A stretch of 62,350 nucleotides of DNA from a virus: IMG/VR virus record IMGVR_UViG_3300017987_000016. One strand, written 5' to 3'. Of the stretch, positions 8,609 to 31,005 are shown piece by piece. The first letter of the stretch is position 1. Each line of letters begins with the position of its first letter. The translations under genes were made by a program, and so were the position numbers. Below the pieces are notes generated by a model. It worked only from the letters and a program-made list of their open reading frames with translations, did not search any database and had not been told where the DNA came from.

Positions 8609-9271
8609 TTAATTTTTAATCTGACTGAACCGAATGAATACCATGTGACCATCCCAATCATAACTCATCACGTCCGAACTGTCTGGTGCTAACGTCACCC
8701 CACCACAATCAAAGGTGGCTCCATGTTGAAATTGTGTCGAATCGTCCATCACATAGATATGACCCCATTGTGGAATACTGGACCCGGGCGTATTCGTAAA
8801 ACTCGTAATCGTCGTTAAACTGGTATTATTTGTCCTGAATGAAGGCCCCCCTGCTATGCTGGGAGTTACAGAATTCTGAGTTAAGGTATCCAGGTTACCA
8901 AATGGATTAGCCACATAAAGATTCTCACCACTGGCCTTTATTGTCACATCATCGGGATTATTGGTCACATCACCACCGACATATGATTTTGCTGCATCGG
9001 ACAAATCAGATAATACAATAGTGCCATCTTCAATAATAGTCGATGTTACCGCCCCTTCTTTCAAGGCTCTTGTTGCAATAGCTGTATCTCCGATACCACT
9101 ACTTCGAAGCTTGTTATCTATGATCTTATAGCCCAAAAATCGCGTGATATTATTATCCAGAATTTCTACATAGGCCCGTATCTCAAGGCTGTCAACTCGT
9201 GTTTTTCGCCGTTGGGCATGAACAAAAACTGGAAGAACTATCAATAGCAATATCAAATATTTTGTTTTCAT
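8609..9271 (-). CDS. Secreted protein with Sec-type signal peptide (220 aa)
   Basis: ATG 9271 after GAGGAGAATAGA; MKTKYLILLLIVLPVFVHAQ-RRK. Confidence 0.55.
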   Translation of the reverse strand: MKTKYLILLLIVLPVFVHAQRRKTRVDSLEIRAYVEILDNNITRFLGYKIIDNKLRSSGIGDTAIATRALKEGAVTSTIIEDGTIVLSDLSDAAKSYVGGDVTNNPDDVTIKASGENLYVANPFGNLDTLTQNSVTPSIAGGPSFRTNNTSLTTITSFTNTPGSSIPQWGHIYVMDDSTQFQHGATFDCGGVTLAPDSSDVMSYDWDGHMVFIRFSQIKN

Positions 9272-9281
9272 TCTATTCTCC

Positions 9282-12200
9282 TCACTTCTTTTCAAAATTC
9301 TCAATAATCCTTTTCGCTCGTTCCCTTTGTTGATGTGTGGCTTTATGCCTTCCAGATGCAATCATTTTTTGTCGCCACAGATAACGTTTTATATTTATCA
9401 AAAGCTTTCTTCCTGCATCTCGAACCTCTTTGGGAACGGATTCCTTTTCGACAAATTTATTGATCTGTTTATTATATTCTTCTACATTTTTTATCGGGTC
9501 GTTTATTGTGGTTAAATATCGGAATAACTCATCTCGATTATTTCTTAGTTTGTAAAACTTTTCCCAATGCTCTCTCCGTCTTTTTTCTTCTTCTGTAACC
9601 GTAGTCCTCACGCCAAGAGCAGACATAGCAAAGGCCAGAGCTGCATTTGCACCTCTACGCCGTGATTGCTGAAAAGTGCTTGTTGATATGGGCGCCATTC
9701 GGGTCAATTCATAATTAACAAACTTCATTATTTCCTGCATATCCAAAGGTACATCAACAACAACATCGTTTTTCCAATCTATGACAGCCTTGCCTTGCAT
9801 CAACTCACCCATGTCCGTGGCCACCTGCAATAACGTAGAATTCATACCCCCCACCCTATCAAGGACACCAGAGGGTATCTTGTCTGCCTGTCCCGTGAAA
9901 AGATTACCCCAAATTTGCCAGTAGTCTTTGTCATAAGTGAGCATATCTATCATAATGTCTCTGTCTTTATCGTCCTTCAACCCCGTATTGACTTTGAATA
10001 AATCTCTAATATCTTCAACGGTTTCCGGTTTTTTGGGTGATTTTTTTGTAAATATTAATGTCCCGATTGTTGCCAGTGTTGCGGAAATAATCAAAGAATT
10101 GACTACGTTCTGCCTGGATCGATCCCCAGGCCCACCTTTTCCCCATTGGGCCAAAGCTTTAATGTTCGTTCTATAGTTCCCTTCGGCATATCCGGGCGCC
10201 ATCCAGATAAATCGCATTAAAGTTGTTGTTGTGCCGCTTCGCCCAAAAAGACGCTCGTTCATCTCACCGTAAAAATTTTGTCCTTCCTTAATCGTATCGA
10301 TCAATTCGGCATCTGTAAGATTTCTTTTTAATTTCGTTTCGCGTCTGGCAATGTCTTTCATATAAGCCTGAAATTTAAGCTGTGGTATATACCATCTAAA
10401 AAGCCAGCTTACGTAATTAAATGGCAACTGCGGAACCTTAAATGCGGCTCTGCCAAGTTTGGTTTTAAAAACTTTCATCGTGCCGGTTTTCTCAAACAAC
10501 TTTTCAATTTGACGAACAGCCGCTCTTTCAATCTCGAAATGGCCCTCACCACCGATAGGCGTTCCGCCAAGTCTTATATAGTGTTGGTACGCCCTCTTAA
10601 TCGTCGGGTCTTTGATAACTTTCGAGTGGGCATCTTTTGTGATTCTTACGGCATCCCTAACAGTGCCGGTAAATTTCTTGGGATTCATAAAGCCAAACCA
10701 ACCATTGTCCGCAAAAGCCTGTTTGGTAACTGACATTTGATGAAAGGCACTAAACAAGAATTTAAAAGCCCTTAAATAATTATTCATCGACCAGAAAAAT
10801 CGTCCAGTTTTATTCGTGGTAATTTTATTTATAGATAGCAGGCTGTTGATCAATCTTGCCAGGTCAGGTTCGGCCCAAATATTATTCCACACGGGATCAC
10901 CCTCTGCTCCGATTAGCTTCCATCCTGCCGGTCGTTTCTTTTTGGGTGTCTGGCGCATAACGTATTTGTCTTTGCCGTCTTCTAAAAGTGTTTCCCTTAA
11001 CCACGTGTTGGCTCGGATTCTTTCAATCGTTCCGATTTCAGATTTGATATTCGTTATCGGATTTGGATTTTTCAATTCAAGTCCGTAAATTGCCTTTGCG
11101 TCTGCATAAGTCCCAAATGTTTTGGGATGTAAGAACGATGTTGAATTTCTGAAATGATCTTGGAGTCTTTTCTTAACATCTCTTATATAATCTCTGTAAG
11201 CGTCGTTGTTTTTGTAAACACCCCTGAAATAGTCGTTTACATAAAATAGGTTAATCTCTGTCATCTCGTCGGCTGTCAAACCATCCCCTTTTCCGGTTTC
11301 CTCGGCATATCGTAAAAGTTTGCCATAAGCAATGTCAGCCGCTTCCTGGGTGACTGCCATAGTTCTTTCGTATACATTTCTCATTTCAGGTGAGACTTTA
11401 TGAGTGGCTTCTTTCTGTAAATCTATCCCCTCTATATCTGTAGGATCACCCCTTGTCAGCATAAAATTATCAAGTTCGGCATTACTAAAATTCTTGTTCA
11501 AATATTGTTCTACATCACCGAAGGTTTTGTCCGATTTGCTGATAGCCCTATCCGAAAACTCAACCTGTTGTGCCTGAGCATGATGAAAGGCTTTAATAAC
11601 GTCGGCGGCGACCTTAGAACCGTGTTTCCATTCTACAAGCTTTGCAGGTTCAACGACCTTCGCAATGGGAGTAATGGCCTTTTTTGTAGCAGCCACGACC
11701 TCTTTAGCTGAAGGGCCGCCGCCGTACATCCTTACTTTCTCAGGTGCTATTGTCTTTTCTGTCCCCTCATATTCAACAACAACGTGACCCTTGTTCTTTC
11801 CTTTCTCAATCTTCCGAACGAATGTTCCTGTACGAAGAGCATCATTCTTATCGTAAAAACTGACTTTCTCCTGTGCTTTAAATAAATCTCCCGTTTTGAG
11901 TTCCTTGGTCTTAAACATCCCCACACCTTCACGACCCACTACTGGCTTGGTTTCTTTTTTAATCTTGCCTGTCGGCATCTTGGCTTGACCGAGAAGTTCG
12001 GGAGATACTATTTGTTCGTGCTTAGCACCTGGGACTTTTTGGGTGGTGAGTTTCTTGGGCTGTAATTTTGGATAATCTTTATCCTTTATGCTTACGTATT
12101 TAAAAACCTTTTTAATGTCGTCTGGTAATTCAAGTTTTTTGGTGGATACCCAACCCCCACCATGTCGCGCAACAATGTTCCGTGCAACTCCAATGGGTAT

Positions 12201-15200: not shown

Positions 15201-15632
15201 TGGTTTCCCCAAGCCCACGGTAGCGCCCCTGAGATGACTCGCTGCGGTTTCTGGAAATCCAGAAACCGCAGCCTTCATTCCAAGAAGAGGCTTAAAACCC
15301 GAAACACCTTTTTCTGTGCTTTTCTGAACATTAAAATCAGCCAGACTCATAGCCGCTTCATGCGTCAACCCCTCTTTTCTCCACTTGCTGTAGTCAGGAT
15401 ACAGATCGGGACGTTCCATCGCTATTTGATTTTTCTCAACATCTTCCCGTGGAATTTCCGGTTCCTTTGGGGCGAGAATCTGATCAATGATATTTGTCGG
15501 ACGTTGAAATTCCTGGTATCTCTGAGAATATCTACGTTCGGCCTCCATCACATCTCCTGCTTGACCGAACACCTGGTCGTATAATGTATTGAGATCAGAT
15601 TGATCTTGTTTTTTAGGGGAAAGGATCGACAC
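9282..15632 (-). CDS. Giant virion-associated protein (2116 aa), candidate internal/ejection or polyvalent protein
   Basis: Single uninterrupted ORF; GTG start overlapping the upstream TAG; charged coiled-coil middle; hydrophobic segment VVNSLIISATLATIGTLIF in the C-terminal third. Confidence 0.6.
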   Translation of the reverse strand: MSILSPKKQDQSDLNTLYDQVFGQAGDVMEAERRYSQRYQEFQRPTNIIDQILAPKEPEIPREDVEKNQIAMERPDLYPDYSKWRKEGLTHEAAMSLADFNVQKSTEKGVSGFKPLLGMKAAVSGFPETAASHLRGATVGLGKPLSPEVQEQLGITPEQAESFSDKYIDPALLKAADWLDNLPNELSEKDYAEMNKAMGASLIPKKFNLEEISKSFNKLQVLLGRNLATLLSAKVAGKAYGPLGGILVMGSQETGNFVKNANETGIDKDITEKWAERYGAVAGPVEYLQQAWLFSRFGKTKPEREIAKKVFSESLKKLMISKAGRVIAELLGASVEGLEEVIQGGTQTWMMNKAIDEMRERHGLSEEELPYQSTDLKEEFLAGAALGLVHAGAGGAVRSVANRVSNAAKNVRSKPIENITEEDLNEINEAISEKMKLHEEKPLSEHEQWWMENVSTLEKLHKVRASEEGRQAVLEALAEMEKKGLGEEDALRIRGDEAEIQEGVRERGVLAGEGIEEGEDQGGENIQRPEKTRPEASDKELRLEEKSTKTKWPSNLQRFIDEESKQLREKSDIEELQNNPEKYLKNRIKTNKLILEIDYFKNDKEMITTARENIKQSEQLLKELKTEKTEAKEISIEEVATEKIEKPLFEKKIFKHSQTGEDKHVITLGKRIDKDQFKALSQRARSLGGYYSKYKQQGAIPGFIFKTEQDAEKFIEGRWGEGKKPMTYQHLVRNYGGLKSEGDLAGEVKRLPLWVRRGDGLTLDQMWERLKEDGYPVESVNDLINKLMAKEELPATGKQVKETEEKAREKEVEDFEKFEPVEMTAGEIAKKGVGAKVKIRGEDYEVKKAEPGEIVLEDGTRYELDEFDKITVDRGEIIPAEKAKVLFKPGVKEAIKKHDLEYIGVQKGIAELPDLLMFNDPEAKGTTFGVPTGSTVEVLEKRMNEAREGFKEKPKKEEPQIVKFKSEMKKDKFGESYPYKLPGFGESYPYNLPEGDYQFRIEPKKTGKGYNLIPIDENGEPVQVKTVHGDSIDKIGITQQMYERDLEKQIKEQPAKEPWEMTWKDYFDQNAYFYHKDTGEKIRNAIPEDQLKARHRLSIKKRIRAGKPVPAEVLKDYPELKEKKSLLVDGHKRDNQGGGYEDVEIPIGVARNIVARHGGGWVSTKKLELPDDIKKVFKYVSIKDKDYPKLQPKKLTTQKVPGAKHEQIVSPELLGQAKMPTGKIKKETKPVVGREGVGMFKTKELKTGDLFKAQEKVSFYDKNDALRTGTFVRKIEKGKNKGHVVVEYEGTEKTIAPEKVRMYGGGPSAKEVVAATKKAITPIAKVVEPAKLVEWKHGSKVAADVIKAFHHAQAQQVEFSDRAISKSDKTFGDVEQYLNKNFSNAELDNFMLTRGDPTDIEGIDLQKEATHKVSPEMRNVYERTMAVTQEAADIAYGKLLRYAEETGKGDGLTADEMTEINLFYVNDYFRGVYKNNDAYRDYIRDVKKRLQDHFRNSTSFLHPKTFGTYADAKAIYGLELKNPNPITNIKSEIGTIERIRANTWLRETLLEDGKDKYVMRQTPKKKRPAGWKLIGAEGDPVWNNIWAEPDLARLINSLLSINKITTNKTGRFFWSMNNYLRAFKFLFSAFHQMSVTKQAFADNGWFGFMNPKKFTGTVRDAVRITKDAHSKVIKDPTIKRAYQHYIRLGGTPIGGEGHFEIERAAVRQIEKLFEKTGTMKVFKTKLGRAAFKVPQLPFNYVSWLFRWYIPQLKFQAYMKDIARRETKLKRNLTDAELIDTIKEGQNFYGEMNERLFGRSGTTTTLMRFIWMAPGYAEGNYRTNIKALAQWGKGGPGDRSRQNVVNSLIISATLATIGTLIFTKKSPKKPETVEDIRDLFKVNTGLKDDKDRDIMIDMLTYDKDYWQIWGNLFTGQADKIPSGVLDRVGGMNSTLLQVATDMGELMQGKAVIDWKNDVVVDVPLDMQEIMKFVNYELTRMAPISTSTFQQSRRRGANAALAFAMSALGVRTTVTEEEKRRREHWEKFYKLRNNRDELFRYLTTINDPIKNVEEYNKQINKFVEKESVPKEVRDAGRKLLINIKRYLWRQKMIASGRHKATHQQRERAKRIIENFEKK
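12661..12717. repeat. 33-nt tandem duplication inside the giant gene (encodes FGESYPYKLPG / FGESYPYNLPE)
   Basis: ttgtaaggatatgattcaccaaat at 12661..12684 and 12694..12717. Confidence 0.85.
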
Positions 15633-18027: not shown

Positions 18028-20562
18028 TTAATCTGTCGGATCGACTTCTATGCCGTAAATTTCCCAATATGACTTATTCTTAACCTCATCCCTGATTTCG
18101 AGTATAAAATCCATACACCGTTTCCGCAACGCAACACCTTTCGTGGTTTCAACAATACTCGCTGGCAGTGGTTTTGATCTTACGGGTATATCATCAACAC
18201 CATCCACATACATATTCACTCTCAGGGGAACGGCTGATTTATACTTAACCCTTAAAATTCTCACCGGCTCTTTTCTTTTGGATGAGACACGAAATCGTTT
18301 CGATTTATACCCTGCAATAACACTCTCCCGTGCGAACGTAGAATATAATGTCTGCGTGTTTTCGTTATAGATTAAAGCCCGTCCGTCAAAATCTTTCGAT
18401 GCAATGTCGATATAATGGGATGTCAGTTTCTGCTCCCAGGCTTGTTCGACAATATCGAAAGACCATACTTCCCCATTTGGAAATTGGAATATAAACTCAT
18501 TCTCAGCCTCATCGTAAATTCCGATTATGTTCGGCATCCCATTTTCAGGATCGAGAGCGAGATACTTATCGTTGATCGGTTCTGAAATACGATTTTCAAT
18601 CAAAGGCGTTTCGTCCGCAGCAGCCACCAAGTTGGCGTCAACCACATAAATCCCGTCATAGGAAGGCATGGCAATCCGATGACCTGATTGAGCCAAACCA
18701 TTAGGAGCCAGATTCCCCCTGTTGAATCGTGCCTCCTTAAATCCCCATGTACTCATATCAATCAAATCCACGATATCCATTTTGAATATGGCATGTTTTT
18801 TAAATATCATTGGGGATCCGAAAGATGAGCCAATACCCGTGATCGGACCGCCCTCTCTGTCCAAACAGGCTTTGACTCTCGATACCGGGATAGCATCATA
18901 ACATTCTGGATAAGAAAAGGCTCCCCAATCATCATGCGATTCATTCTCTCCACCAGGGTCGAGCACGATATCGGCTAAACACAAAAGTTCTTTAACTATA
19001 ACTGCATACTGGCCATTAACATTAATCGAAGGCTCACCCTGATAAGGATGTTCTTCTCCATCAGTGAGGTTATTATCAAAAAAATTGTAAGTGGCAATCC
19101 CGCCTGACCAATTAATCAGATAACTCCCGTCTATCATCTTAGCCAATTTCCACGAAACATCAGATTTGGTAGACCAATGGACATAACACAAAAAAGCATG
19201 GCCGTAATTTTCAAGAATCATGTTTGAACTATTATCTAAAAGAATTACAGAACCTTCATATCCTTCTCCCGTAGAATCATAGTCTAATATTATCGCTACA
19301 TCTTCACCGGCAAAACCACCTCCTTCATCGGTACCGCCTTCCGCTACCTTAACATCATCTTCATAAAGTCGCCAATCACAATTCCAAAAACCATAGTCTA
19401 CGGTTTCACCTCCCACATCTGCCCAAGCCGTCGTCGTTGCAACTAATGTCGTTGAATTCAATTGAGAAGCTATCGTGCCAATCGTCCAATAGCCAGGCCC
19501 AACCTTATGAGCTAAATGAACTTTATACGTATGTGACTCTAAATCCAATTCGTACTCTAAATCGGGAAGATAGACAACCTGATCCCCTGTATAGGCTCCG
19601 TCAGTTCCCGTGTGTGCTTTTCCTGTATCTCTCGTTAATTCAACGGTTTGAATTCTATAATACGTGCCATTAATAGAATCCGAACGATAAACATTTATCC
19701 CCGTAATTCTTTTATTGAAAGAGGTTGCTATCATCGAAAAAGCCAATCTCACATGGAATTCGGATGTGCTTTTTTCAACAATAATTGGATCCTCGGATAA
19801 AAGACTTTCCTGCACACCGTCATATAGAAAGGCAAGTTTATAATACCAATATTCTTTGCTTCCCGTATCGCCAGATTCCGCAGCAGCAAACGCCCCGCCT
19901 GCAATAGCAGAACCAGACGCACTCAGAGAAGCTATATTGGGTTTGGTAAGCTGAGAATTATATGCGAAAAATCCCTTATCATAATCTGTTCCTTCTATAT
20001 AAAGTCCATCGAAGTAATCCCTGTCAATATACCCGATCCAAATGGGCTGCCCACCAGATACATTTCCAGGCAGAATTCTCAGCATGTTATCCGCATGAAT
20101 GATAGGATTCTTTGCATATTTGTGATAAAACGTTCCCAGAGTATTTTTCAAAAGCGTGTTGATGTTTTTCCACTCCCCATCGTCCCAATATTTCAGGGTA
20201 ACAACGTTTGTAGAAGAGTTAATGATCACAACAATCGTCACATGATCCACCCCATCAGTCAGAAAATCCGATAAATTAGGATGAACAAACACAAACATAT
20301 TCTTTATAGACTCGCCAATTTCAGTGTCATAAGCACTCTCTACCCAATATTCGTGATCCGTCCATGCCTTAGAGTCATCCCAATTCCCACTTTCGATCAC
20401 GTCCATAATGGCCAATCGATCCCCAAACCCGAACGTTTTCATCAATTTCCCATATTTGGCCTTCATATTCTGTAGAGAACTTGGGGTTTCCTTCGGGATG
20501 TCCCCAAGATCAGCATTTGAAATCGGGCCTGTGAATTGATCTATTTCAATGTATTTCGACAT
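18028..20562 (-). CDS. Large virion structural protein (844 aa), tail tube/nozzle candidate
   Basis: Size and position between fibre genes and internal proteins; no signal peptide. Confidence 0.4.
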   Translation of the reverse strand: MSKYIEIDQFTGPISNADLGDIPKETPSSLQNMKAKYGKLMKTFGFGDRLAIMDVIESGNWDDSKAWTDHEYWVESAYDTEIGESIKNMFVFVHPNLSDFLTDGVDHVTIVVIINSSTNVVTLKYWDDGEWKNINTLLKNTLGTFYHKYAKNPIIHADNMLRILPGNVSGGQPIWIGYIDRDYFDGLYIEGTDYDKGFFAYNSQLTKPNIASLSASGSAIAGGAFAAAESGDTGSKEYWYYKLAFLYDGVQESLLSEDPIIVEKSTSEFHVRLAFSMIATSFNKRITGINVYRSDSINGTYYRIQTVELTRDTGKAHTGTDGAYTGDQVVYLPDLEYELDLESHTYKVHLAHKVGPGYWTIGTIASQLNSTTLVATTTAWADVGGETVDYGFWNCDWRLYEDDVKVAEGGTDEGGGFAGEDVAIILDYDSTGEGYEGSVILLDNSSNMILENYGHAFLCYVHWSTKSDVSWKLAKMIDGSYLINWSGGIATYNFFDNNLTDGEEHPYQGEPSINVNGQYAVIVKELLCLADIVLDPGGENESHDDWGAFSYPECYDAIPVSRVKACLDREGGPITGIGSSFGSPMIFKKHAIFKMDIVDLIDMSTWGFKEARFNRGNLAPNGLAQSGHRIAMPSYDGIYVVDANLVAAADETPLIENRISEPINDKYLALDPENGMPNIIGIYDEAENEFIFQFPNGEVWSFDIVEQAWEQKLTSHYIDIASKDFDGRALIYNENTQTLYSTFARESVIAGYKSKRFRVSSKRKEPVRILRVKYKSAVPLRVNMYVDGVDDIPVRSKPLPASIVETTKGVALRKRCMDFILEIRDEVKNKSYWEIYGIEVDPTD

Positions 20563-22124
20563 TAAAGAGCTTCTCCCAGTGAATTGGCCACGTATTTAAA
20601 ACCGATCATAATTACATAAGCATCTGATGTACAAGTATCGCTTGCATGATCTCCGTCACGCATCACATCCAGGGTTATGTAATAATCCGTTGCGCCGATG
20701 TCAGAAGCCGATATAGTCCAAGTGTCGATATTCAAACCCTTAGACGTAGATGAACTTGTTTTGGTGGAAGACGAAGAAGAACCCGCTATGGATGTATCTT
20801 CATTTTCAGTCCGTGCAAGATGCGTCACAACCCATTGAACATCATCCGATATATTATTAGTAGCCCAAAAAAGAACTACTGTAGCGTCTGCGCTTGTATC
20901 CATGTTTTCAGGTATGCCAATATTTGCACGGATCGCCTTATCTGCACCGTCGGCAAATGACCAACCTTTACCATTCCCCCAATTAGAGAGAGTGGCTGCC
21001 ATGGTGCTATTTTCTCTTAACTCATTCGCCCCAAGCCATATTGTTTGATAAATTCTGGCCGTACCATGTAAGCTTAATTCGCCATCGGCTGCAAACTGAG
21101 CATAATTTGTAGTCCCACCGTCGCCTATTTGCGTATTATCGCTGGCATCAACATTTACCACACCATTATCAAGTTGTGTATCTGAGTTCTGTGTGTGTTT
21201 TTTAGTGATCGCATCTGACGCATCCGAAACAGATAATCCACTATCATCGGGTAAACCGTTTGCGTCCGCATCCATCAGATTATTCTCTGTGATCGTAGAT
21301 GTATGATCCGAACTTGAGTCTATGGCGTGGCTTCTGTCGTGTAATTTAGAATGGTCATAACTTGATTCATGGGTTGAAACAGCACCGGCATCTTCATAAT
21401 CGGAATCGGATTTACCTGAATCTTTTGGTAGTCCGTTTGCGTCAAAGGATACGAAATTATCCTCTGTTGCACCCGAAACTCCATTATGATCGTCGGTTCC
21501 GTCAATATCATGTTTTCTGTCATGTTTCTTCGAAACAGCATCTTCTATGTCAGTGCCAGCAGAAGTAATGTCCACGTGTGCATTTACGGGTATTAAGTTA
21601 AGAGCATCGCTTACATTGGCCGAATCGGTAACATCGGCATTCGCTTCGATCCCATCGAGCTTTGCCCCATCTACTGAAATGTCTCTGTCGTCAATTAATA
21701 TCAAATTATCAACAGTTAAAGTATCTTGGAGATTTCCCCCACAGATCAACGTATCTGAAGTATTGACCATTAAAACAGTATCGGTATTTTGAGTGTGTCT
21801 TTTAGAAACCGCATCTTCAATATTGGCGCCAGAAGATGTGATGTCTGAATGTGCGTTTGCCGTTATCTCCTCATGGGCATCTTCAACATCTTCGATGAAG
21901 TTTTCAACCTGAGTACCCTTCGTTAATTCCCACCAAACTACTTTGCCATCAATTGCGGCAATCTGATACCTTCGGCTTTTATAAATACATAGGGTGACAC
22001 TATTCTTACTGAGTTCGGAAACCCGCACCGATGCTGGATTTTTCCGAAGCAATCGATATTTGATCTGCCCGAAAGAAGAAGTGGCAAAAATGAGAAAAAT
22101 GAGTATTTTAATTAGTCTTTTCAT
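20562..22124 (-). CDS. Tail fibre-like protein with signal peptide and internal His/Asp-rich repeats
   Basis: MKRLIKILIFLIFATSSFGQ; repeats NAHSDITSSGANIEDAVSKRHTQNTD / NAHVDITSAGTDIEDAVSKKHDRKHD / SDAITKKHTQNSD. Confidence 0.5.
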   Translation of the reverse strand: MKRLIKILIFLIFATSSFGQIKYRLLRKNPASVRVSELSKNSVTLCIYKSRRYQIAAIDGKVVWWELTKGTQVENFIEDVEDAHEEITANAHSDITSSGANIEDAVSKRHTQNTDTVLMVNTSDTLICGGNLQDTLTVDNLILIDDRDISVDGAKLDGIEANADVTDSANVSDALNLIPVNAHVDITSAGTDIEDAVSKKHDRKHDIDGTDDHNGVSGATEDNFVSFDANGLPKDSGKSDSDYEDAGAVSTHESSYDHSKLHDRSHAIDSSSDHTSTITENNLMDADANGLPDDSGLSVSDASDAITKKHTQNSDTQLDNGVVNVDASDNTQIGDGGTTNYAQFAADGELSLHGTARIYQTIWLGANELRENSTMAATLSNWGNGKGWSFADGADKAIRANIGIPENMDTSADATVVLFWATNNISDDVQWVVTHLARTENEDTSIAGSSSSSTKTSSSTSKGLNIDTWTISASDIGATDYYITLDVMRDGDHASDTCTSDAYVIMIGFKYVANSLGEAL

Positions 22125-22695: not shown

Positions 22696-24609
22696 CTATT
22701 CTTCCTTGCTTTTTTCCCAACGATATTCTGCACCAGAAGCTCCGTCAGCAGGTCTTACAACGATCAACGAATCATTCCTTGCATCCCACTTCGGAACATC
22801 TTGTGCGTCGGCAGCAGAACCAAGAAACGTGATGGTATAACTATCTGTGGATTTTGCCCCTGGAATTAAAACCGTATCTTTTACTGCCGTACCACTAAAT
22901 GAATCTCTTCCAGACGCCGCATTCGTCAGCGAACTCAATACAGCACCGGATATATTTGTTATATAATTATTTTTGACATAATTACTATCAGACCCAGCGA
23001 TTCCCTTTATAAAATTGGTTGGGACATCACTGGAGTCACTCCCAACCATGTTATTAGTAAATACATTTCCATCCCCAGCACCGGAAAAGTATATAACATG
23101 GGGATATGATGACCCACTGCTCGATGCAACATCTTGCAGAAAGTTAAGAGCGATAAGGTTATCATCAGCGCTTTCATCTAATCGGATTTCATAAACAGAA
23201 CTCCCTCCAAGTAAATTTCCACCAATTATATTATCAGCAGCTGATGTCCGAATACCATAAGAATCACCCCAGGCCAGATTCCCCCAGACAATAGACTTTC
23301 CACCATTTGGCCTGATTGATCTGGAATCCTTCAAAACATTGAATGATATGATCGTTCCAGGACCGGAGCTAATTATAGCATCTTTGCACCCATAGAATGT
23401 ATTGACTGTAATCGTCCCCCAATCCCAATATGCTTCAATGCCAGTATCTAAATTATTAAAATGGTTCCCGTATATAGAATTCCCTCTCATGGTCGTACTG
23501 TTTGTACCTGAAATCCCATGCGATCCGCCAATATTCCCATCCCCTTCAAATGTATTGCCCTCAACAACATTTCCTTGACAGGGATTAGAACCATCTGTAC
23601 TAAAAATTATTCCTGCAATATCATAGCCGAGATTGTCAGGGATATTCTTGAAATAGGACTTAGAAATCTTATTGTAATAAGTATCTATAAAGATTGCACT
23701 TGAATTGACTTCCTGCTCTCTTGTCAATGTAAAAGTACATCCAATGACTTTGTTAGACCTTCCTGAATGCAGCCTTAAATGCACATAATCGATCGAGTCC
23801 CACCTACAATTTTCAAAATACCAGTACCACGGACTATCAATATTTATTCCATAATGCTCTGAACCCTTGAAAGCACAATTCTTCATAGTAATGCAGTGTG
23901 TCGCAGCTGCATCATCATCATGAATGAGATTAAAATTGGTTTTATCGTGTTTTGGGTGATTTCTATTCCCATCCCATGTCAATCCCTCAAACGTACAACT
24001 ATCGCCATTAATAAAGCAAAAATAGATTGAATAAGCCGAATCACATTCGCATTTCAATGTCGTAAAATGGCCCACGTACTTCACTCCACTGCTATCAAAC
24101 GTGATCTTCTTCATCATATACGTAACCCAGGGCTTGTAGCTCATGTGTCGGCAGATATTCGCATCTATTGCACGTTCATGATTGGTCTCATTGTCCGTGG
24201 ACCCATCACCAACGACTCCCCACCATTCCGGGAAACACACTTCATTGCTGATTTTGCCCGTAATAGTTAAATTGGGGCCAAATATCTGATACCTTCCTGC
24301 ATTGATGTAGCAATTATCTAAATGCAGTGTTTTGGCATTACCCGGAGAGATTTTACCACCCATGGGGATATCCAAAGTAACATTAGCATCTACCGTATCG
24401 TCGGTTGAAAGACCAATCACATCGGGGATGAGTAGGGTTGCAGTATCGGACGCAGCTTTCGTCAAAGCAGCTCCGAGGCTATCGAAACCGTCTACGGTAT
24501 AATAAGCATTATATTGATAGGCGTATTTAGTCTCTTTACCTCTATATGATTGACCAAAAAGTATCGAGGCAAATAATAGTGTAAATATATATATTCCAAA
24601 TCGTTTCAT
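22696..24609 (-). CDS. Right-handed beta-helix (pectate-lyase-like) tailspike / depolymerase candidate with signal peptide
   Basis: MKRFGIYIFTLLFASILFGQ; FPEWWGVVGDGSTDNETNHERAIDA (Pectate_lyase_3-like); many N/G-rich repeats such as GNSIYGNHFNN. Confidence 0.55.
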   Translation of the reverse strand: MKRFGIYIFTLLFASILFGQSYRGKETKYAYQYNAYYTVDGFDSLGAALTKAASDTATLLIPDVIGLSTDDTVDANVTLDIPMGGKISPGNAKTLHLDNCYINAGRYQIFGPNLTITGKISNEVCFPEWWGVVGDGSTDNETNHERAIDANICRHMSYKPWVTYMMKKITFDSSGVKYVGHFTTLKCECDSAYSIYFCFINGDSCTFEGLTWDGNRNHPKHDKTNFNLIHDDDAAATHCITMKNCAFKGSEHYGINIDSPWYWYFENCRWDSIDYVHLRLHSGRSNKVIGCTFTLTREQEVNSSAIFIDTYYNKISKSYFKNIPDNLGYDIAGIIFSTDGSNPCQGNVVEGNTFEGDGNIGGSHGISGTNSTTMRGNSIYGNHFNNLDTGIEAYWDWGTITVNTFYGCKDAIISSGPGTIISFNVLKDSRSIRPNGGKSIVWGNLAWGDSYGIRTSAADNIIGGNLLGGSSVYEIRLDESADDNLIALNFLQDVASSSGSSYPHVIYFSGAGDGNVFTNNMVGSDSSDVPTNFIKGIAGSDSNYVKNNYITNISGAVLSSLTNAASGRDSFSGTAVKDTVLIPGAKSTDSYTITFLGSAADAQDVPKWDARNDSLIVVRPADGASGAEYRWEKSKEE

Positions 24610-27600
24610 TTTATTTTCTCCTCAAGAGCTTCGATACGTTTCTGTTGATCTTGAATGACACCAATCAAGTAGGTTATCATCCGTTTCTGGTGCCAGTCTT
24701 TAGGATTTCCTTCACTGTCATAGGCTGTGATAAGTTCTGGCAACACCCTAGCCACGTCCTCGGCAACCAATCCATAATCGTGCATTCCGGCGACCGCACT
24801 TTTTTCATTCCAGTCAAATTCAACGGGACAAAGCATGTTTATTTTGATTGGGTCTAACTTCCATCCCTTAATATTGTTTTTATAGATTCTACTGGAAGCA
24901 TCCTCAACAATTTCATCTGTATTGGCTACTCTATACAATGTTTGTCCAGTTCCCGTGTCAAGCCCTTGCATAAAAACATCACCATCAGAAGCATTTACTA
25001 TAAGCGCACTATCTTCATTCGCTGATTGAACACGGAAATCCACATCACCTCCATTACCATTAATCTCGAAGTAGTCTTGGGAGTCATTCTCTAACATATC
25101 GAACATTAATACGTCGCCAGTTTTTAGATAAAATCGGTCATTCGCAAATGCAAAGTACGTATCGGGGTCGCCATTATGCTTAACTGTCTGGTCAAAACCA
25201 ACCTCTGCACCAATGACCTGAAATGGATAATCAGGGTTTGCCGTACAAACACCAAGCCAACCTTTCGCTGTTACGACAACACTACTATCCCCAGGGTTGC
25301 CGTCGTCATCGTTGATAGCTTGGAATAAATTGCCAGTCGTTTTGTTACCATCAATCTTTAACCCAAGGGCACTGCCAGACGTGTTAATATCAACTGGACC
25401 GATAAAATCAGGAGCCGTACTAAATACTATATTGGTCGAAACAGTACCCGTCGTACCCGTTGCATTACTCAAATAATTAAGTTGTGTTCTGGTTGTGGAC
25501 AAATCATCAATGACCTCTAATTCAGCCTCATTTATAACGGCGTCGCCTATGGCAATTTGAGTTGTAAACAGTGGGCTGTTAAGCGGTGCCAAACTGGCCG
25601 TTGAAGTTGGAAAAGTATATGTCTGCGCGGCGGTTCCAGAGAATGTATATCCGGCATAGGCAGGAGCCGTTGTAACCCCACCACTTAAAAGAGGCTGTCC
25701 GGCGGCCACATCAGCAAGTTTACCATAAGTCTCCGCGGCAGTGGCATATAACAAGTCCCCGACTGCGTGAGATTGTCCGGCGAGTGATGTTAAGTTTGCG
25801 TCTAATCCTTGCCCGCCGATTTGAGTCAATACATTTGCCGGTGTTTTAAATTCCAAAGCAGAGTTATCGGAATTGGAGCCCAGGATATAATTATTCCCAC
25901 CCGAAGTAACAACGCCATAGGTGTTGTCGGCTGTCGTTTCGAGGATAGAAACGTCTGCTTCTGTCAACCCTGCAATACTCGCCAGGGCTGCATGAGCATC
26001 CTGAAAAGCAGTTGCTTCCTCTCCATCCAATAGATCGGCGTTTAAATTTGTGTTGACTGTGGTAGACGTTATTGAGAAAGGTGAGGTTCCAACTGGTACT
26101 CCACTAACCCATTGACCCAACTTATTTACTACGGAAGAACTATCTCCAGCGACACCGTCATCATCATTTATAAATTCTGCAAGATTGCCAGTTGTCTTGT
26201 TTCCGTCAACAGATATACCATTCGCACTACCATATAGAGTAAGAGCTAAATTACCGGACGAGGAAAGGCTCATTCTCAATTGTGTGTCATTATACCACCC
26301 GAAAAGCTTCTTTCCAGCACCAAAGGGAGACCATGTTGTAGCCGTCTTTTCGCCAGCAGAAAACTTCATAACATAATCGGTAGGCGTGGCTTGGGTAGAT
26401 GCGCCAGCCAACCATAGACCTTCTACATCGGCTGCCTTAGTAAGACCAATTAATCTTAACCCCCCATCGCTACCATCATTAATACTGAAATTAGCATAGG
26501 CATCAGAAGAACTCAAACCGGTCATACCATGATTGAGACCATCTTTTCTAAATTCTACCTCTTCAGACGACTCGGCAACATAAGTCGCCGTGTCATCCTG
26601 ACTCCAATAGGTGTTCACCCCACTAAGTGCAGTTCGTAAGGCAGAAGCCGAATCTGTTAGCGCGCTTCGGGTCGCCACATGACCTGTAGCATGGCTGGTT
26701 GAATCGGCAATGTTTACTTTTTTATTTATTTCTGTCCAATGATTAGAAGCCGTGTCCGTACCAGCAGAACGTGTCATATAATGATTTACTGCATGAGATG
26801 TAGAATCTACTTTGTTAACTTTGGAATCAATCTGCGTCTGCACGTCCGAGGTTACAGAGGACAAATAGCCTAATTCGGTCGCGGATACATTCGTTTCATA
26901 GCTCTTGGCAGAAAAATCTCCGGTAGCCTGGACTTTCCCGTCTGTCTTTATTATCAAAGACTGATTTCCAACCTTAATGGGGTTATCTGATACTATTCGA
27001 GTCGTGTCTCCATCGTCATACCAATAAGAAGAGTCTGCCTTGGAGTCATCAGTAACCATGAATCTCTTACTGTACACAACCTGCCATCTCTTATCGGGGT
27101 GTGCAGAATCATGACTCCCATCATCAACGGGTTCAATAGAACCTTTAAACCCAATAGAACCTCCCTTCCCTTTCATTACATCTCCAACCCGGGTCGTGTC
27201 ATCTGCATCGGAGAAATAATCTGATAAAACAGTATCGGCAGTTGCATTCCCGTTAGCTTCTAAATCACCATCTACATAAAAATTATTAGATAGTTCAAAT
27301 CTACTATTCCCGTCGTCCCACTTGAAGCTTTCAGCCGTAAAACTCCCATCATCGGCAAAATAGAGAATTGCATCATGGTCGCCCGTCGTGGTATCACCAA
27401 TAGTAACTGTCTGAAGCGTGTAGACCCCTCCAGATGTATCCACCCAAAATGCCTGAGTTCCCTCATCTTTTATTTCGATAAAATATTTTGACCTCGAAGC
27501 ATCAATCCTAATCGTATCATTGTCCGCAACCCAGGCCGTCGCTGAATCGACTATTCCGATTTCAATCTGATAATAGTATTCATTGATCGTCACACTGTCG

Positions 27601-27818
27601 GCCGTAAGTTCGGTCGCATGAAGGCTATCTACTTGAAGTAAAACAGCGTAAAGATCGGCCACATGAAGGCTATCTATCCCCACGATATAACCAAATCCCT
27701 TTATCCATATCGTGTCGTTCGTGGCATAGACAAACTTATTCCCAAGTCTTCCCTGACCCATGGCCGACTGACCGAACAAAAGGATAAGGATTGCTAAAAA
27801 AATGAATATCTTCTTCAT
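24606..27818 (-). CDS. Tail fibre (1070 aa) with C-terminal peptidase S74 intramolecular-chaperone domain and N-terminal signal peptide
   Basis: C-terminus SSRIYKNNIKGW...PVEFDWNEKS...HDYGLVAEDVARVLPELI...IGVIQDQQKRIEALEEKIK; N-terminus MKKIFIFLAILILLFGQSAMGQ. Confidence 0.7.
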   Translation of the reverse strand: MKKIFIFLAILILLFGQSAMGQGRLGNKFVYATNDTIWIKGFGYIVGIDSLHVADLYAVLLQVDSLHATELTADSVTINEYYYQIEIGIVDSATAWVADNDTIRIDASRSKYFIEIKDEGTQAFWVDTSGGVYTLQTVTIGDTTTGDHDAILYFADDGSFTAESFKWDDGNSRFELSNNFYVDGDLEANGNATADTVLSDYFSDADDTTRVGDVMKGKGGSIGFKGSIEPVDDGSHDSAHPDKRWQVVYSKRFMVTDDSKADSSYWYDDGDTTRIVSDNPIKVGNQSLIIKTDGKVQATGDFSAKSYETNVSATELGYLSSVTSDVQTQIDSKVNKVDSTSHAVNHYMTRSAGTDTASNHWTEINKKVNIADSTSHATGHVATRSALTDSASALRTALSGVNTYWSQDDTATYVAESSEEVEFRKDGLNHGMTGLSSSDAYANFSINDGSDGGLRLIGLTKAADVEGLWLAGASTQATPTDYVMKFSAGEKTATTWSPFGAGKKLFGWYNDTQLRMSLSSSGNLALTLYGSANGISVDGNKTTGNLAEFINDDDGVAGDSSSVVNKLGQWVSGVPVGTSPFSITSTTVNTNLNADLLDGEEATAFQDAHAALASIAGLTEADVSILETTADNTYGVVTSGGNNYILGSNSDNSALEFKTPANVLTQIGGQGLDANLTSLAGQSHAVGDLLYATAAETYGKLADVAAGQPLLSGGVTTAPAYAGYTFSGTAAQTYTFPTSTASLAPLNSPLFTTQIAIGDAVINEAELEVIDDLSTTRTQLNYLSNATGTTGTVSTNIVFSTAPDFIGPVDINTSGSALGLKIDGNKTTGNLFQAINDDDGNPGDSSVVVTAKGWLGVCTANPDYPFQVIGAEVGFDQTVKHNGDPDTYFAFANDRFYLKTGDVLMFDMLENDSQDYFEINGNGGDVDFRVQSANEDSALIVNASDGDVFMQGLDTGTGQTLYRVANTDEIVEDASSRIYKNNIKGWKLDPIKINMLCPVEFDWNEKSAVAGMHDYGLVAEDVARVLPELITAYDSEGNPKDWHQKRMITYLIGVIQDQQKRIEALEEKIK

Positions 27819-27851: not shown

Positions 27852-27863
27852 CCACCTTGTTTT

Positions 27864-28331: not shown

Positions 28332-28354
28332 GATAGGTGTCCTCCTGTTATGGA

Positions 28355-28375
28355 TTTGTCAAGTACATAATTATT
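28355..28375. repeat. Right copy of the perfect 21-bp inverted repeat (overlaps the stop codon of 28371..28709)
   Basis: tttgtcaagtacataattatt. Confidence 0.95.
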
Positions 28376-28709
28376 TGTCTTCTTTAATTCTCGATGATCT
28401 CTTAATTCCCTTCTTGATTTTCCCCATAACGTTCTTCGTGTGCCATTTATCATTTTTCCAATATGTTATAACTGCTTTTTTTGCTTTGGAATAAACAGTG
28501 GTATCGCTAAGACTGACCATAAAAATGGGTTCATCAAATTCATAAGTAATTTTCGCATCAGACTCATGCCTGTTCCCCCTGGGTGTGCCATGATACTCCT
28601 CTCCGTTAATCTCCATACAACTGAATTCCACCACGAAATAGACCTTTTTCTTCCCCTGACCGAACAGAGGTATGGCTATTAAAAGAACAAGACATAGAAT
28701 TCTTTTCAT
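28371..28709 (-). CDS. Small secreted protein (112 aa) with signal peptide
   Basis: ATG 28709 in an ATGA overlap with the upstream stop; MKRILCLVLLIAIPLFGQ-GKK. Confidence 0.5.
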   Translation of the reverse strand: MKRILCLVLLIAIPLFGQGKKKVYFVVEFSCMEINGEEYHGTPRGNRHESDAKITYEFDEPIFMVSLSDTTVYSKAKKAVITYWKNDKWHTKNVMGKIKKGIKRSSRIKEDK

Positions 28710-29200
28710 CTTTGATTCCCCTGTGGCCAAATACGGATGTTGTGATAAGAGGTGTCCTCATCATCGTCTGAACCGCCCTTCTTCAGAACTATCCGAATGC
28801 CGTCGTATACTCTGAAATTGACAAATAAAGGATCAATGGGATAAGTGTTAAAAGCATAAGCAGTCGTCAGCGAGATTGTTGCCACTCTTACAGAATCGGC
28901 ATACTCTGTGCGATAATTTGTCAATCCGGTAAGTAATTTTCTTGTTATCCCATAGGCTTCAACAGTCAATGTGTCCGTCGCAGACCCAACCTTGGCAAGA
29001 ATAGAATAATCTACCGGCCCTATATGCCGGTTCAGCGAAGTCGAGTCATTGTTCATGTTGAAATAGAAATCCCGAACTACCCTGGTTTGGGTAAACAGCG
29101 TATCCATCACCATGTATTGAGGACAATCCACGAAATTCTGTCCCAATAAAGGCATTGCTATTATCATGAATAACACAACCACATAGTTTCTCATCTTCAA
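28706..29200 (-). CDS. Secreted protein (164 aa) with signal peptide
   Basis: AAGGAGATTTGAAG before the ATG; MKMRNYVVVLFMIIAMPLLGQ-NFV. Confidence 0.5.
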   Translation of the reverse strand: MKMRNYVVVLFMIIAMPLLGQNFVDCPQYMVMDTLFTQTRVVRDFYFNMNNDSTSLNRHIGPVDYSILAKVGSATDTLTVEAYGITRKLLTGLTNYRTEYADSVRVATISLTTAYAFNTYPIDPLFVNFRVYDGIRIVLKKGGSDDDEDTSYHNIRIWPQGNQR

Positions 29201-29206
29201 ATCTCC

Positions 29207-29869
29207 TTATTCTGAAAAATAACCTTCAATGTTATCGACGTTATAAAACATTTCCTCTTCAGTGCGGCCCAAAACATCCTCAACAATTTTCTGATTTGCT
29301 TTCATGATGTTATATTTCTTTGTTGCTGCTTGAATTTCTTTTTCCCATCTGTTTTCATAAATGGTAGCCTGATCATATTTTTTTTCCATTTCAAATACTG
29401 TAAAAATGACATAATAAGCTAAACTCCTGTGTTCAACTACAGGAATGATCGGGCTGTCCGCAGTAGCAGTTTGATAATAGTGATACCATCGCCCCATATA
29501 ACCATGACTCGATGGCTTGGGGATCAATCTATATGTAGTTCCTTCAATCTGGTAAGCTGCCGGTATTCCGGTTTTCAACACACCAGATGAACGATAAATT
29601 TCAACTCCACTTTTTTCATGAACGGGTTCTATTTTATTCCCTTCCCACTCAAGCTTGATAAATTCATAGCCAGTAAATCCCGTCGGGAGATCATAGGTGT
29701 CCGAAAGAGTACCTTCGTTAAGGTCTTCCGTGCTTACTTTATCATGTTTCCAAAGGCAATGGGTCTTTTCAATGAATTCATTCTCAGCTTCCCGAAGCAG
29801 ACTAATAAAGTCATAACCCAACACACCCGTTTTTCTCGTAACGTTGTTTTTTAATGTTGCAAAAGTCAT
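29207..29869 (-). CDS. Virion structural protein (220 aa), adaptor / tail-tubular-A-like candidate
   Basis: MTFATLKNNVTRKTGVLGYDFISLLREAENEF... N-terminus and position after the capsid genes. Confidence 0.35.
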   Translation of the reverse strand: MTFATLKNNVTRKTGVLGYDFISLLREAENEFIEKTHCLWKHDKVSTEDLNEGTLSDTYDLPTGFTGYEFIKLEWEGNKIEPVHEKSGVEIYRSSGVLKTGIPAAYQIEGTTYRLIPKPSSHGYMGRWYHYYQTATADSPIIPVVEHRSLAYYVIFTVFEMEKKYDQATIYENRWEKEIQAATKKYNIMKANQKIVEDVLGRTEEEMFYNVDNIEGYFSE

Positions 29870-29925
29870 TAAGATTACCCTTAACTTTATGGCAGGAACC
29901 GTTAAGCTCCTGCCATATTTTTCTC

Positions 29926-31005
29926 TTAGTAAGTTGCGACACCAATCCCACCACCCGCGGCTGCCGCCGGCTGGTTCGACCAGACAACATCATTATCAGC
30001 CTCTGCATCGATCTTGGTAAAACCGACCGTAAGGCAATCCAGCATACCGATATTGCCCGTATTGGGCTTTGTTCCGATAAACCAGGAGGCACAGATATTG
30101 GCATGAGTATTGGCTCTCCATACCGCAAAAACGCATCTCTTGAAAATATCAATGCCGTTCAGAGTAGCAGCGCCGGAAGTCTCAAACCCGCCGAATGCAG
30201 TACCGGCGGACACTTGCTGTAGAAAGGTGCAATCAGTAAAGAAATTCTGTGCCGTTGCACCCGAGAGATGAATCCAGCAAGCTGCATTGTCCCCAGCATC
30301 ATAAGAACTCGACCCGAAAAAACAGTTGTTGAAAACGGTTTCATCACCACTGACCCTGATCTCTAAGTCAGACTTATAGGCATTGGCAGACTGCGGAGAA
30401 CAGTTGAAATGACAGTTTATAAACGCATTCCTTGGGCCGGATAACTGAACGGCCGACACTTTAGCAGTGGCACTCACAGGATCACCGTCGTTTTCAGGGC
30501 TGTTATAGAAATCAATATTGATAAACGTGTTGTTCTGGCCCGTCAAATAGATAAGGGTAACCAGTGAATCCGCAGCACTCGTGTGCGTTACGCGCGCTCT
30601 GCCGAAATAAGCATTGGGAGCTGCAAGACCAATAACGGTAATGCCATATTTGGCCCATGCTATTCGTGTCGTCATTGTCGATGAATTACTGGAACCCGAA
30701 ACAGCGCCAGAAACCAATATGATACCATCACCAGCACCCGAAGTACAAGCATTATAACCATAAGTCAGGCTCGCGAACGCATTATCATGGCATTTGCCAT
30801 CCAAAGTAGAAGAATCAGTACCATTGGCAGGGTCAACCCAAAACCATGTGCCCCCGATCTTCGGCAATTGCATCCCTTGAAAATCACTTGCGGTCAACTT
30901 CGCTGCATCCATCCATCCGACATATTGCCGAACTGAAGCTGGATGTTGGGCAAACAGAGGGATCGTAATCATAAGAATAAAGATGATTGGAAGAAATCTC
31001 TTCAT
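29926..31005 (-). CDS. Parallel beta-helix (pectin-lyase-fold) protein with signal peptide
   Basis: ATG 31005 after AAGGAGTATCTGATT; MKRFLPIIFILMITIPLFAQ; repeated NxF.NC.F rungs (NTFINIDFYN, NAFINCHFNC, TVFNNCFFGS, QNFFTDCTF). Confidence 0.5.
   Translation of the reverse strand: MKRFLPIIFILMITIPLFAQHPASVRQYVGWMDAAKLTASDFQGMQLPKIGGTWFWVDPANGTDSSTLDGKCHDNAFASLTYGYNACTSGAGDGIILVSGAVSGSSNSSTMTTRIAWAKYGITVIGLAAPNAYFGRARVTHTSAADSLVTLIYLTGQNNTFINIDFYNSPENDGDPVSATAKVSAVQLSGPRNAFINCHFNCSPQSANAYKSDLEIRVSGDETVFNNCFFGSSSYDAGDNAACWIHLSGATAQNFFTDCTFLQQVSAGTAFGGFETSGAATLNGIDIFKRCVFAVWRANTHANICASWFIGTKPNTGNIGMLDCLTVGFTKIDAEADNDVVWSNQPAAAAGGGIGVATY

Follow-up and report, generated by a model that had tools for sequence, protein, structure and literature searches.

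Predicted host-type signal peptides on fibre- and decoration-slot proteins of a temperate SU10-type podophage

The viral record IMGVR_UViG_3300017987_000016 of IMG/VR (62,350 nt; hereafter the window, meaning the whole stretch at its full length) was studied by a computational analysis centered on nine genes whose products begin with predicted Sec-type signal peptides (SPs). A preliminary description of this DNA had listed nine N-termini of the form MK(+)-hydrophobic stretch-(F/A/L)(G/A)Q, most of them on fibre, spike and other virion-module proteins, where cleavable export signals are not expected in a tailed phage. All nine open reading frames (ORFs) were found in place on the minus strand and begin as described. 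Seven lie in the late/virion module, its lysis side included, and two in the early region. Each N-terminus combines a positively charged n-region, MK(K/R/T), with a hydrophobic core of 11-14 uncharged residues and an (A/G)↓Q junction (the arrow marks the predicted cleavage site), and a Pro or Gly stands three to seven residues before that site in most of the nine. The residue at -1 is A or G and the residue at +1 is Gln in 9/9, with V, S or L at -3.

The window encodes TerS, TerL, a SU10/P22-type portal protein (34650..36611; SU10_portal, PF23899, and P22_portal), a scaffold-sized protein, an Mx8-like HK97-fold major capsid protein (MCP; 31535..32536; phrog_9953, E 2.6e-38), a SU10-type adaptor of 220 aa (29207..29869; PF24175), an 844-aa protein at the nozzle position (18028..20562), a 2116-aa giant protein and an M15 endolysin (Peptidase_M15_4; 7808..8230), those with coordinates all on the minus strand, as well as methyltransferases and, on the plus strand, a tyrosine integrase (2728..3747; Pfam Phage_integrase, E 1.7e-16). 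Portal and adaptor match the SU10_portal and SU10_adaptor families of Pfam, respectively. The gene order of phage SU10 runs portal gp6, capsid gp9, Ig-like gp10, adaptor gp11, long fibres gp12/13, short fibre gp16, nozzle gp17 and needle gp18 (PMC9509320; KM044272). Like this Escherichia coli Kuravirus, the window presents portal, scaffold, capsid, decoration, adaptor, fibres, a nozzle-sized protein and internal proteins in that order. Within this order the predicted SPs were confined to the decoration and fibre slots, and the core, comprising terminase, portal, scaffold, capsid, adaptor, nozzle-sized protein and giant protein, carries none.

Between the capsid gene and the adaptor, in the slot of gp10, lies the gene of a 359-aa right-handed beta-helix protein (29926..31005; SP codons 30949-31005, MKRFLPIIFILMITIPLFA↓Q, ending IPLFA↓Q). 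Its AlphaFold2 (AF2) model is confident (pLDDT 89.3, pTM 0.85) and shows a right-handed beta-helix of stacked coils. Foldseek matched it with probability 1.0 to pectin methylesterases, a PL9 lyase and tailspikes, and also to RbmB and phage fibres, at identities of 9-17%. The adaptor, a core neck protein without SP, sits between signal-bearing genes and is directly followed by the gene of a 164-aa jelly-roll protein resembling carbohydrate-binding modules (CBMs) (28706..29200; SP 29141-29200, MPLLG↓Q). The AF2 model of this protein (pLDDT 91.2) is an eight-stranded jelly-roll, for which Foldseek found CBM22/29/11/36 and viral jelly-rolls, all weak (TM ~0.4). A 4-nt overlap joins this gene to that of a Lys-rich 112-aa protein (28371..28709; SP 28659-28709, IPLFG↓Q), which has a signal-bearing orthologue at 75% identity in the related locus L002 and may be a small partner or chaperone.

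The largest signal-bearing product of the window is a fibre-like protein of 1070 aa (24606..27818; SP 27771-27818, ILLFG↓Q). Its end in a peptidase S74 intramolecular-chaperone domain, as claimed in the preliminary description, found partial support: the Pfam Peptidase_S74 score of 19.8 bits stays below the cut-off of 22, and the C-terminal ~100-140 aa matched annotated tail fibres by tblastn (E 1e-5 to 3e-8, 30-38% identity). In L002 the first 156 aa, among them the SP, are 63% identical, and an internal motif of the fibre recurs in P0133, which is also SP-bearing. Overlapping the fibre gene by 4 nt is the gene of a probable beta-helix protein of 637 aa (22696..24609; SP 24553-24609, ASILFG↓Q), whose Pfam Beta_helix match (E 2.4e-5) is again sub-threshold (24.5 bits against 25.9). 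To the two pectate-lyase-like beta-helix proteins of the preliminary description, structure prediction added the 359-aa protein as a third. A 520-aa protein (20562..22124; SP 22068-22124, ATSSFG↓Q), for which no family or PDB match was found, completes the series; its stop codon overlaps the start of the 844-aa gene. The 164-, 112-, 1070-, 637- and 520-aa proteins thus fill the fibre slots between the adaptor and the 844-aa protein in a tightly packed, translationally coupled array.

Three signal-bearing proteins are encoded elsewhere. A 220-aa protein (8609..9271; SP 9215-9271, MKTKYLILLLIVLPVFVHA↓Q) lies between the giant protein and the lysis genes; its residues 8-90 are weakly similar to the N-terminus of an SP-bearing 1009-aa protein of L010, and it may have a role in lysis instead of being an appendage. 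The early region carries a 286-aa (49891..50751; SP 50692-50751, AMLAG↓Q) and a 127-aa protein (50748..51131; SP 51081-51131, VSVMG↓Q) whose genes overlap by 4 nt and which had no family match. For these two, a role at the cell envelope during infection or lysogeny is more likely. A 122-aa protein encoded nearby at 49213-49581 gave a weak TPR match of YfiO/BamD type (E 2e-4).

Ribosome-binding sites were clear and of AGGAG type for 7/9 genes and weaker (AAGGAA) for the fibre gene, and the 520-aa gene starts 2 nt after the preceding stop codon. Exact-sequence look-ups of eight of the proteins showed that public gene callers had chosen the same start. For 28706-29200 we used a TTG start, and the public call lies two codons later at an ATG (162 aa). 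No conserved internal start codon or ribosome-binding site that could give SP-less isoforms was found after the signal peptides; a Met near the cleavage site is present only in the fibre, and the L002 orthologue does not have it.

Signal peptides were predicted with a simple home-made heuristic for n-, h- and c-regions, which returned nine SPs with Gln at +1 among the 84 called genes of the window and none among 105 antisense ORFs. Against the 1.4% rate of Q-type signals in 45 SP-less related phage loci, the probability of at least 9 of 84 is 2.6e-6. Gln at +1 in 9/9 has a probability of ~2e-12 at an assumed frequency of ~5%, typical of phyla that do not follow the Q-rule described below, and of 0.046 at the Bacteroidetes mean of 71%. 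Four more heuristic positives, all without Gln, were two small membrane proteins, the ORF at 5566-5754 and the longest TerL start. This longest TerL ORF (37631-39349) opens with the hydrophobic stretch MNWLKVLGVFLVLSFLS and overlaps the TerS gene by 86 nt. The TerL of L010 (33-1703) likewise opens with a hydrophobic stretch, IITAIAIIAMSMF. The hydrophobic TerL N-terminus, present in both phages, is probably a start-codon mis-call.

The nine peptides had been called near-identical, which did not hold: their mean pairwise identity is 40% (maximum 58%), that of their DNA 56% (maximum 72%), and the mature parts of the nine proteins are not paralogues. These values rule out a duplicated signal cassette, and the nine are best taken as independent signals of one class. 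No Cys stands at or beside the cleavage site of any of the nine that would make a lipobox, and none of them matched the C-terminal domain (CTD) of the type IX secretion system (T9SS), either as PF18962 (Pfam, E<=0.01) or as TIGR04183/TIGR04131 (NCBIfam, E<=1), even though the same kind of model found a CTD-bearing host protein. T9SS or lipoprotein sorting was thus ruled out. Bacteroidota proteins exported by Sec with neither CTD nor lipobox stay in the periplasm by default. The periplasm is therefore the expected destination of the nine, and the export to the cell surface proposed in the preliminary description is weakened.

Because longer contigs run from the integrase into bacterial genes, the window is taken to be the circularly permuted genome of a temperate SU10-type podophage, and these contigs (L105 and L106, two public contigs of 68.8 and 65.3 kb) to be lysogens. 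The host genes purA, a STAS gene, secF, secD and a racemase follow the integrase in both. The lysogen occurs in the samples of ENA ERZ27256770 and JGI 3300029258. Junction mapping placed the prophage/host boundary (attP crossover) near window position 3925, where the identity between window and contigs stops, and the integration site downstream of host purA, beside secDF (L105, L106 and L110). The window contains no tRNA. Over ~40 kb of host chromosome at 50% GC, the uninfected locus was seen on contigs that encode an outer-membrane beta-barrel protein (OMP), a periplasmic-type amidase and an FG-GAP protein ending in Por_Secre_tail. LeuRS, SecD, PurA and KatG of the host are encoded on loci L110, L113 and L114. 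As Por_Secre_tail is a T9SS sorting domain that marks this group (distribution per PMC5837995), the host is predicted to be an uncultured T9SS-bearing diderm of the Bacteroidota/Fibrobacteres-Chlorobi-Bacteroidetes (FCB) group. Shine-Dalgarno (SD)-like motifs precede 50% of the window genes (internal control 9%) versus 10% in Bacteroides phage B40-8 (L012), and the host flank has strong SD sites too. This use of SD sites by phage and host suggests a class of the FCB group outside the classical Bacteroidia.

On average 71% of the signal peptidase I (SPase I) substrates of Bacteroidetes expose a Gln after cleavage (the Q-rule), most other phyla staying below ~10%, and the rule is restricted to Bacteroidetes and a few of their FCB relatives (PMC5837995). 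The exposed Gln is turned into pyroglutamate by an inner-membrane glutaminyl cyclase (PMC5837995; PMC10653852). All three SPase I substrates of the host locus follow this design: the OMP (TVQSVLG↓QGFK), the amidase (SFTGLQA↓QMRD) and the T9SS cargo (MKIGILIMVLVLCIPLFLNA↓QTYT). The lipoboxes of two host lipoproteins are of the usual kind (IG↓C and SG↓C). The phage peptides, such as IPLFA↓Q, IPLFG↓Q and MPLLG↓Q, have the same design as the host signals, and the comparison with candidate host signals envisaged at the outset thus came out as a match to the OMP, amidase and T9SS cargo of the host reached through the lysogens. Known Q-rule substrates share with the phage signals the charged n-region, short h-region, small -1 residue and Gln at +1 (Bochtler et al. 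2018, PMC5837995; PMC10653852). The difference is that the signals are here phage-encoded and stand on fibre-, spike- and CBM-like tail-module proteins, with Gln at +1 near 100% versus ~71% in host-phylum proteomes (PMC5837995). We consider it very probable that the nine N-termini are genuine Sec/SPase I signals of the Bacteroidota Q-rule type, functional and cleaved.

Relatives anchored on the adaptor at 68, 56, 41, 34 and 30% adaptor identity all carry SPs on the genes flanking it. In aligned orthologues the signal region drifts freely and the (A/G/S)↓Q junction is kept. A full HMMER search gave 38 representatives of the 164-aa family. All full-length members carry an SP with an (A/G/S/T)↓Q junction; the +1 Gln (Q21) is among about a dozen positions conserved at 90% or more. 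In P0147, the jelly-roll domain heads a 555-aa protein with coiled-coil repeats. These n/h/c features, the match to the host, the conservation in orthologues and the restriction to peripheral slots bear out the unexpected presence of predicted Sec-type signals on virion-module proteins. With the nozzle-sized protein as anchor, closer relatives show Q-rule SPs in the slot upstream of it, whereas distant relatives of higher GC have ordinary SP-less proteins of 714-1202 aa there. L011, a SU10-type phage with an SP-less beta-helix protein, has no SP in its whole structural module, and its fibre-slot proteins showed no homology to the 164-aa family when profiles were compared.

The beta-helix family bears on the origin of the signals. 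Its gene follows the capsid gene in every context examined, and among 120 sequences ~27 have an SP (nearly all with Gln at +1) and ~93 do not. The SP-less members begin with a hydrophilic extension of ~30 residues followed by a common LPxIxGTW motif, and the SP sits upstream of an extension of equal length. After cleavage, the predicted protein would have the same architecture as its SP-less relatives; signals were thus gained by a family of phage proteins that otherwise has none. The 359-aa protein is also the best conserved gene of the module, with 62% identity to L008 versus 28% for MCP and portal and 30% for the adaptor. Such conservation in L008/L013, far above that of capsid, portal and adaptor, implies module exchange or an unusually strong constraint.

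For an enrichment test, 57 IMG/VR loci were fetched with the beta-helix alignment and combined with earlier loci, the SP-clade set including the window. SP-like genes downstream of the beta-helix gene numbered 14/37 in the SP clade versus 16/340 in the SP-less loci (Fisher p = 3e-8 and 1e-8), p-values that are indicative only and overstate independence because the loci are phylogenetically related. Gln-type signals accounted for 12 of the 14 downstream SP genes in the SP clade and 8 of the 16 in the SP-less loci. Upstream, in the head module, the SP-like genes numbered 2/64 and 8/386, respectively.

Large tail-module proteins with Q-rule SPs were also seen elsewhere, in L009 (1070 aa; 18871-20963), L060 (991 aa; 15652-18627), L023 (672 aa; 9821-11839) and L055 (555 aa; 11491-13158), and L099 encodes another large SP-bearing tail protein at 5427-7268. 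Such SPs are thus broader than the clade of the window, and some of their carriers have an SP-less beta-helix homologue. SPs in appendage slots that end without Gln (NANA↓T, AFA↓G, VTA↓K and AVFS↓D) were noted in L007 (8901-14886), L019 (9842-10933) and L081 (2010-4630). They may reflect hosts with lower Q-values, in which case the signals would track the preferences of the host signal peptidase. A general property of Bacteroidota phages was ruled out by the Bacteroides siphophage B40-8, none of whose structural proteins has a Q-rule SP. A check of homologous phages, to which the preliminary description had pointed, showed the SPs kept in uncultured relatives and absent from the fibres of SU10.

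The textbook assembly of tailed phages is entirely cytoplasmic. The explanation that fits best as a whole, to which we give a probability of roughly 0.4, combines host-matched signals with a late attachment of the signal-bearing proteins. The particle core would be made without signals, and the glycan-directed decoration and fibre-slot proteins (three beta-helix or probable beta-helix proteins, the 1070-aa S74-type fibre, the CBM-like jelly-roll and small partners) would be made as pre-proteins. These would pass through SecYEG and be cut before the conserved Gln, from which the host glutaminyl cyclase could make pyroglutamate, and with neither a T9SS CTD nor a lipobox they would be retained in the periplasm. 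As real fibres and spikes folded there, they would dock by their mature N-termini on adaptor and nozzle only after the holin has breached the inner membrane. The endolysin has neither a signal nor a signal-arrest-release (SAR) domain, so a hole-forming holin, and with it holin-dependent release, is expected. Particles of other podophages can acquire their fibres and spikes in vitro. In SU10, adaptor and nozzle are the docking sites of the fibre N-termini (Siborova et al. 2022, PMC9509320). We infer export, cleavage, pyroglutamate formation, periplasmic retention and post-holin docking from the genes and their predicted products. Taken by itself, the claim that the proteins are virion appendages attached after a breach of the membrane falls somewhat short of even odds. 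Broader, and more tentative still, is the proposal that this lineage assembles its particle in two compartments, with all external appendages exported, by a route that arose through the addition of host-type signals and recurs among several lineages of uncultured phages that infect Q-rule hosts.

Several observations weigh against late attachment. We know of no tailed phage that routes virion proteins through Sec, and the prior for the docking step is low. The virion membership of the signal-bearing proteins is suggested by gene position, fold type and sub-threshold Pfam matches, and no sequence homology to window proteins was detected for the SU10 fibres or nozzle; according to the SU10 paper, such tail proteins diverge beyond sequence recognition (PMC9509320). 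L008 and L013 have only small SP proteins between adaptor and nozzle, and L087 has one SP protein alongside SP-less large proteins. The cysteine patterns gave no sign of periplasm-specific disulfides, a conserved Cys ladder being common to the SP and SP-less clades. The heuristic predictor is known to produce false positives, the nozzle and holin of SU10 among them, and the relatedness of the loci that limits the enrichment p-values counts on the same side.

The same proteins could instead be exported envelope factors that never join the virion, a reading we consider unlikely but the strongest of the competitors. As periplasmic proteins, or proteins associated with outer-membrane vesicles or the outer membrane, that bind or cleave glycans, they would trim nascent capsule, lipopolysaccharide or exopolysaccharide, mask or destroy receptors, block superinfection or ease release, and receptor binding would fall to SP-less proteins such as the 844-aa nozzle-sized one. 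To our knowledge, the Sec-exported proteins of tailed phages known so far (lambda Lom/Bor, Llp, Cor, Spackle and SP-endolysins) are all non-virion proteins, which favours this reading, and so do the carbohydrate-active or CBM-like folds. A temperate phage with a PMT_2-like protein of 10 transmembrane (TM) segments and two early SP genes also fits envelope remodelling, in relatives like L008 the slot holds small SP proteins only, and the signals of Porphyromonas gingivalis prophages were read in this way (PMC10367356). On the other hand, 7/9 genes belong to the late structural operon, where they are translationally coupled to genes of the tail core and stand exactly where SU10 and the SP-less relatives have their fibres. 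About three quarters of the beta-helix family, encoded at the same position, lack an SP and are hence cytoplasmic, and the fibre, with its conserved N-terminal region (63% in L002) and S74-type C-terminus, looks like a typical virion fibre. The cell surface would be out of reach with neither CTD nor lipobox. Nor does the window offer an alternative fibre: besides the 844-aa nozzle-sized and the 2116-aa giant protein, no SP-less protein of >300 aa was found in it that could serve as one. Computation does not separate the two readings. Late attachment of appendages, the unusual maturation route of the preliminary description, is slightly favoured over non-virion envelope factors.

A dual fate, in which the signals are inefficient or Sec is saturated or shut down late, so that a cytoplasmic pool goes into virions and an exported pool to the envelope, appears distinctly unlikely. 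It would reconcile the virion-slot position with genuine signal features, and depolymerases of other phages are known to occur both free and bound to the virion; the virion pool would retain its hydrophobic N-terminus or lose it to another protease. The signals, however, look optimal and host-matched, not weak, and no conserved internal start or ribosome-binding site follows them. The strong conservation of the +1 Gln moreover argues that the cleaved form is the selected one.

More improbable again is that the N-terminal helix stays uncleaved, whether to tether assembly to the inner membrane, to dock in the neck or to insert into a membrane during infection. AF2 does model the segment as a helix, the heuristic alone does not tell signal peptides from signal anchors, and the N-termini of SU10 fibres are docking elements (PMC9509320). 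Short h-regions of ~11-14 residues, the Pro or Gly before the site in most of the nine, and a +1 Gln conserved like core residues while the peptide drifts around the (A/G/S)↓Q junction speak against the uncleaved anchor that had been put forward earlier. The design equals that of cleaved secretory proteins of the host, T9SS cargo included, and SP-less family members function with no hydrophobic segment at all. A positive-inside orientation would in any case still place the bulk of the protein outside the cytoplasm. An annotation artefact (wrong starts, untranslated hydrophobic stretches or chance in an AT-rich genome), to which the one TTG start and the hydrophobic, probably mis-called TerL start would lend themselves, is hardly credible given ribosome-binding sites on 8/9 genes (seven AGGAG-type, one AAGGAA) and coupling for the ninth, the same public start for each of the eight proteins compared, orthologues that keep the signals at 30-75% identity and 0/105 antisense ORFs scoring.

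Filamentous Ff phages have virion proteins (pIII, pVIII) with cleavable Sec-type signals and assemble outside the cytoplasm. The window phage would share such signals, predicted here from the genes; unlike it, Ff phages are non-lytic, extruded through the membrane and devoid of capsid, portal and terminase, whereas the window phage is a double-stranded DNA tailed phage with a cytoplasmic head packaged by terminase. Known beta-helix tailspikes and S74 fibres (P22, CBA120 TSP2, K1F endosialidase, T5 pb1) fold in the cytoplasm and have no signal peptide; the window proteins resemble them in the beta-helix fold and in an S74-like C-terminus similar to annotated tail fibres. The SU10 fibres gp12, gp13 and gp16 have hydrophilic N-termini with no signal. 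Unlike SU10, the window phage has a second adaptor-like paralogue, and its fibres and nozzle show no detectable similarity. Lom/Bor, T5 Llp, T4 Spackle and SP-endolysins likewise use host Sec through an N-terminal signal, but are single accessory, lysis or exclusion proteins and not a seven-gene set in a structural operon. SP-endolysins are exemplified by fOg44 Lys44 (PMC8878798). The closest precedent is one paragraph on the 'Nixviridae' prophages of P. gingivalis, in which Q-rule SPs were noted on five genes of unknown function (Matrishin et al. 2023, PMC10367356). These are also temperate Bacteroidota phages with predicted Sec/SPase I signals exposing Gln; there the products were read as outer-membrane modifiers, whereas here a whole appendage set in virion slots was traced across relatives. 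Literature searches for exported tail fibres or tailspikes returned only this P. gingivalis note and the SP-endolysins, and no earlier description of SPs on a coordinated set of fibre- and spike-like tailed-phage proteins was found in the literature searched. If proven, two-compartment assembly would be categorically new.

If late attachment is true, periplasmic folding, pyroglutamate capping and attachment after holin action would be new steps of virion morphogenesis, and the infectivity of the phage would be tied to the Sec, SPase I and glutaminyl cyclase machinery of its host. In such phages, receptor-binding proteins would escape annotation pipelines that exclude SP proteins from virion sets. 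As a marker of the host phylum, the signal design could be used for host prediction. Even on the conservative reading, the analysis reveals a large and conserved group of periplasmic carbohydrate-active proteins, encoded by uncultured phages of Bacteroidota type, that had gone unnoticed. With the prophage and part of the host chromosome identified in public assemblies, the system is directly testable.

Searches beyond the loci above returned little. Among deposited phage genomes (50,697 records) there was no close relative and no member of the beta-helix family, the best capsid identity to any cultured phage was ~27%, and a single-sequence scan of IMG/VR with the MCP gave no matches. Scans of GTDB genomes gave no match to the adaptor and one SP-less match to the beta-helix family, in a Syntrophus metagenome-assembled genome. 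PDB sequence searches with the 844-, 1070-, 637- and 520-aa proteins gave nothing significant. The 844-aa protein, which has 33-35% identity to its counterparts in L007, L008 and L010, did not match the SU10 nozzle in sequence, and its assignment is positional.

A second SU10_adaptor-like protein of 211 aa (17262-17897; PF24175, E 1e-8) is encoded just after the nozzle-sized gene and has no pairwise similarity to the 220-aa adaptor. L007 has two tandem copies of it (17641-19114), and L008 (12564-15121) has one copy plus a 625-aa protein that carries the domain C-terminally. The protein may be a needle base or plug. The 2116-aa giant protein (9282-15632), in the position of an internal or ejection protein, has no cysteine and no Pfam domain; its residues 609-723 alone match phrog_15406 and phrog_11358, which are giant phage proteins. 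Near the endolysin, a 144-aa protein (8227-8661) with one TM segment and a charged coiled-coil C-terminus is i-spanin-like, no lipoprotein o-spanin partner being seen beside the endolysin, and a 131-aa protein (7416-7811) with a long hydrophobic segment is holin-like. A 317-aa protein (44589-45542) with ~8-10 TM segments has a sub-threshold match to PMT_2 (GT-C glycosyltransferase; E 7e-4) and may be an enzyme by which the lysogen modifies its envelope glycans; small single-TM proteins are encoded near it at 43965-44399 and 46471-46731. The early region also encodes a RyR-domain protein (51343-51729; Pfam E 7e-10).

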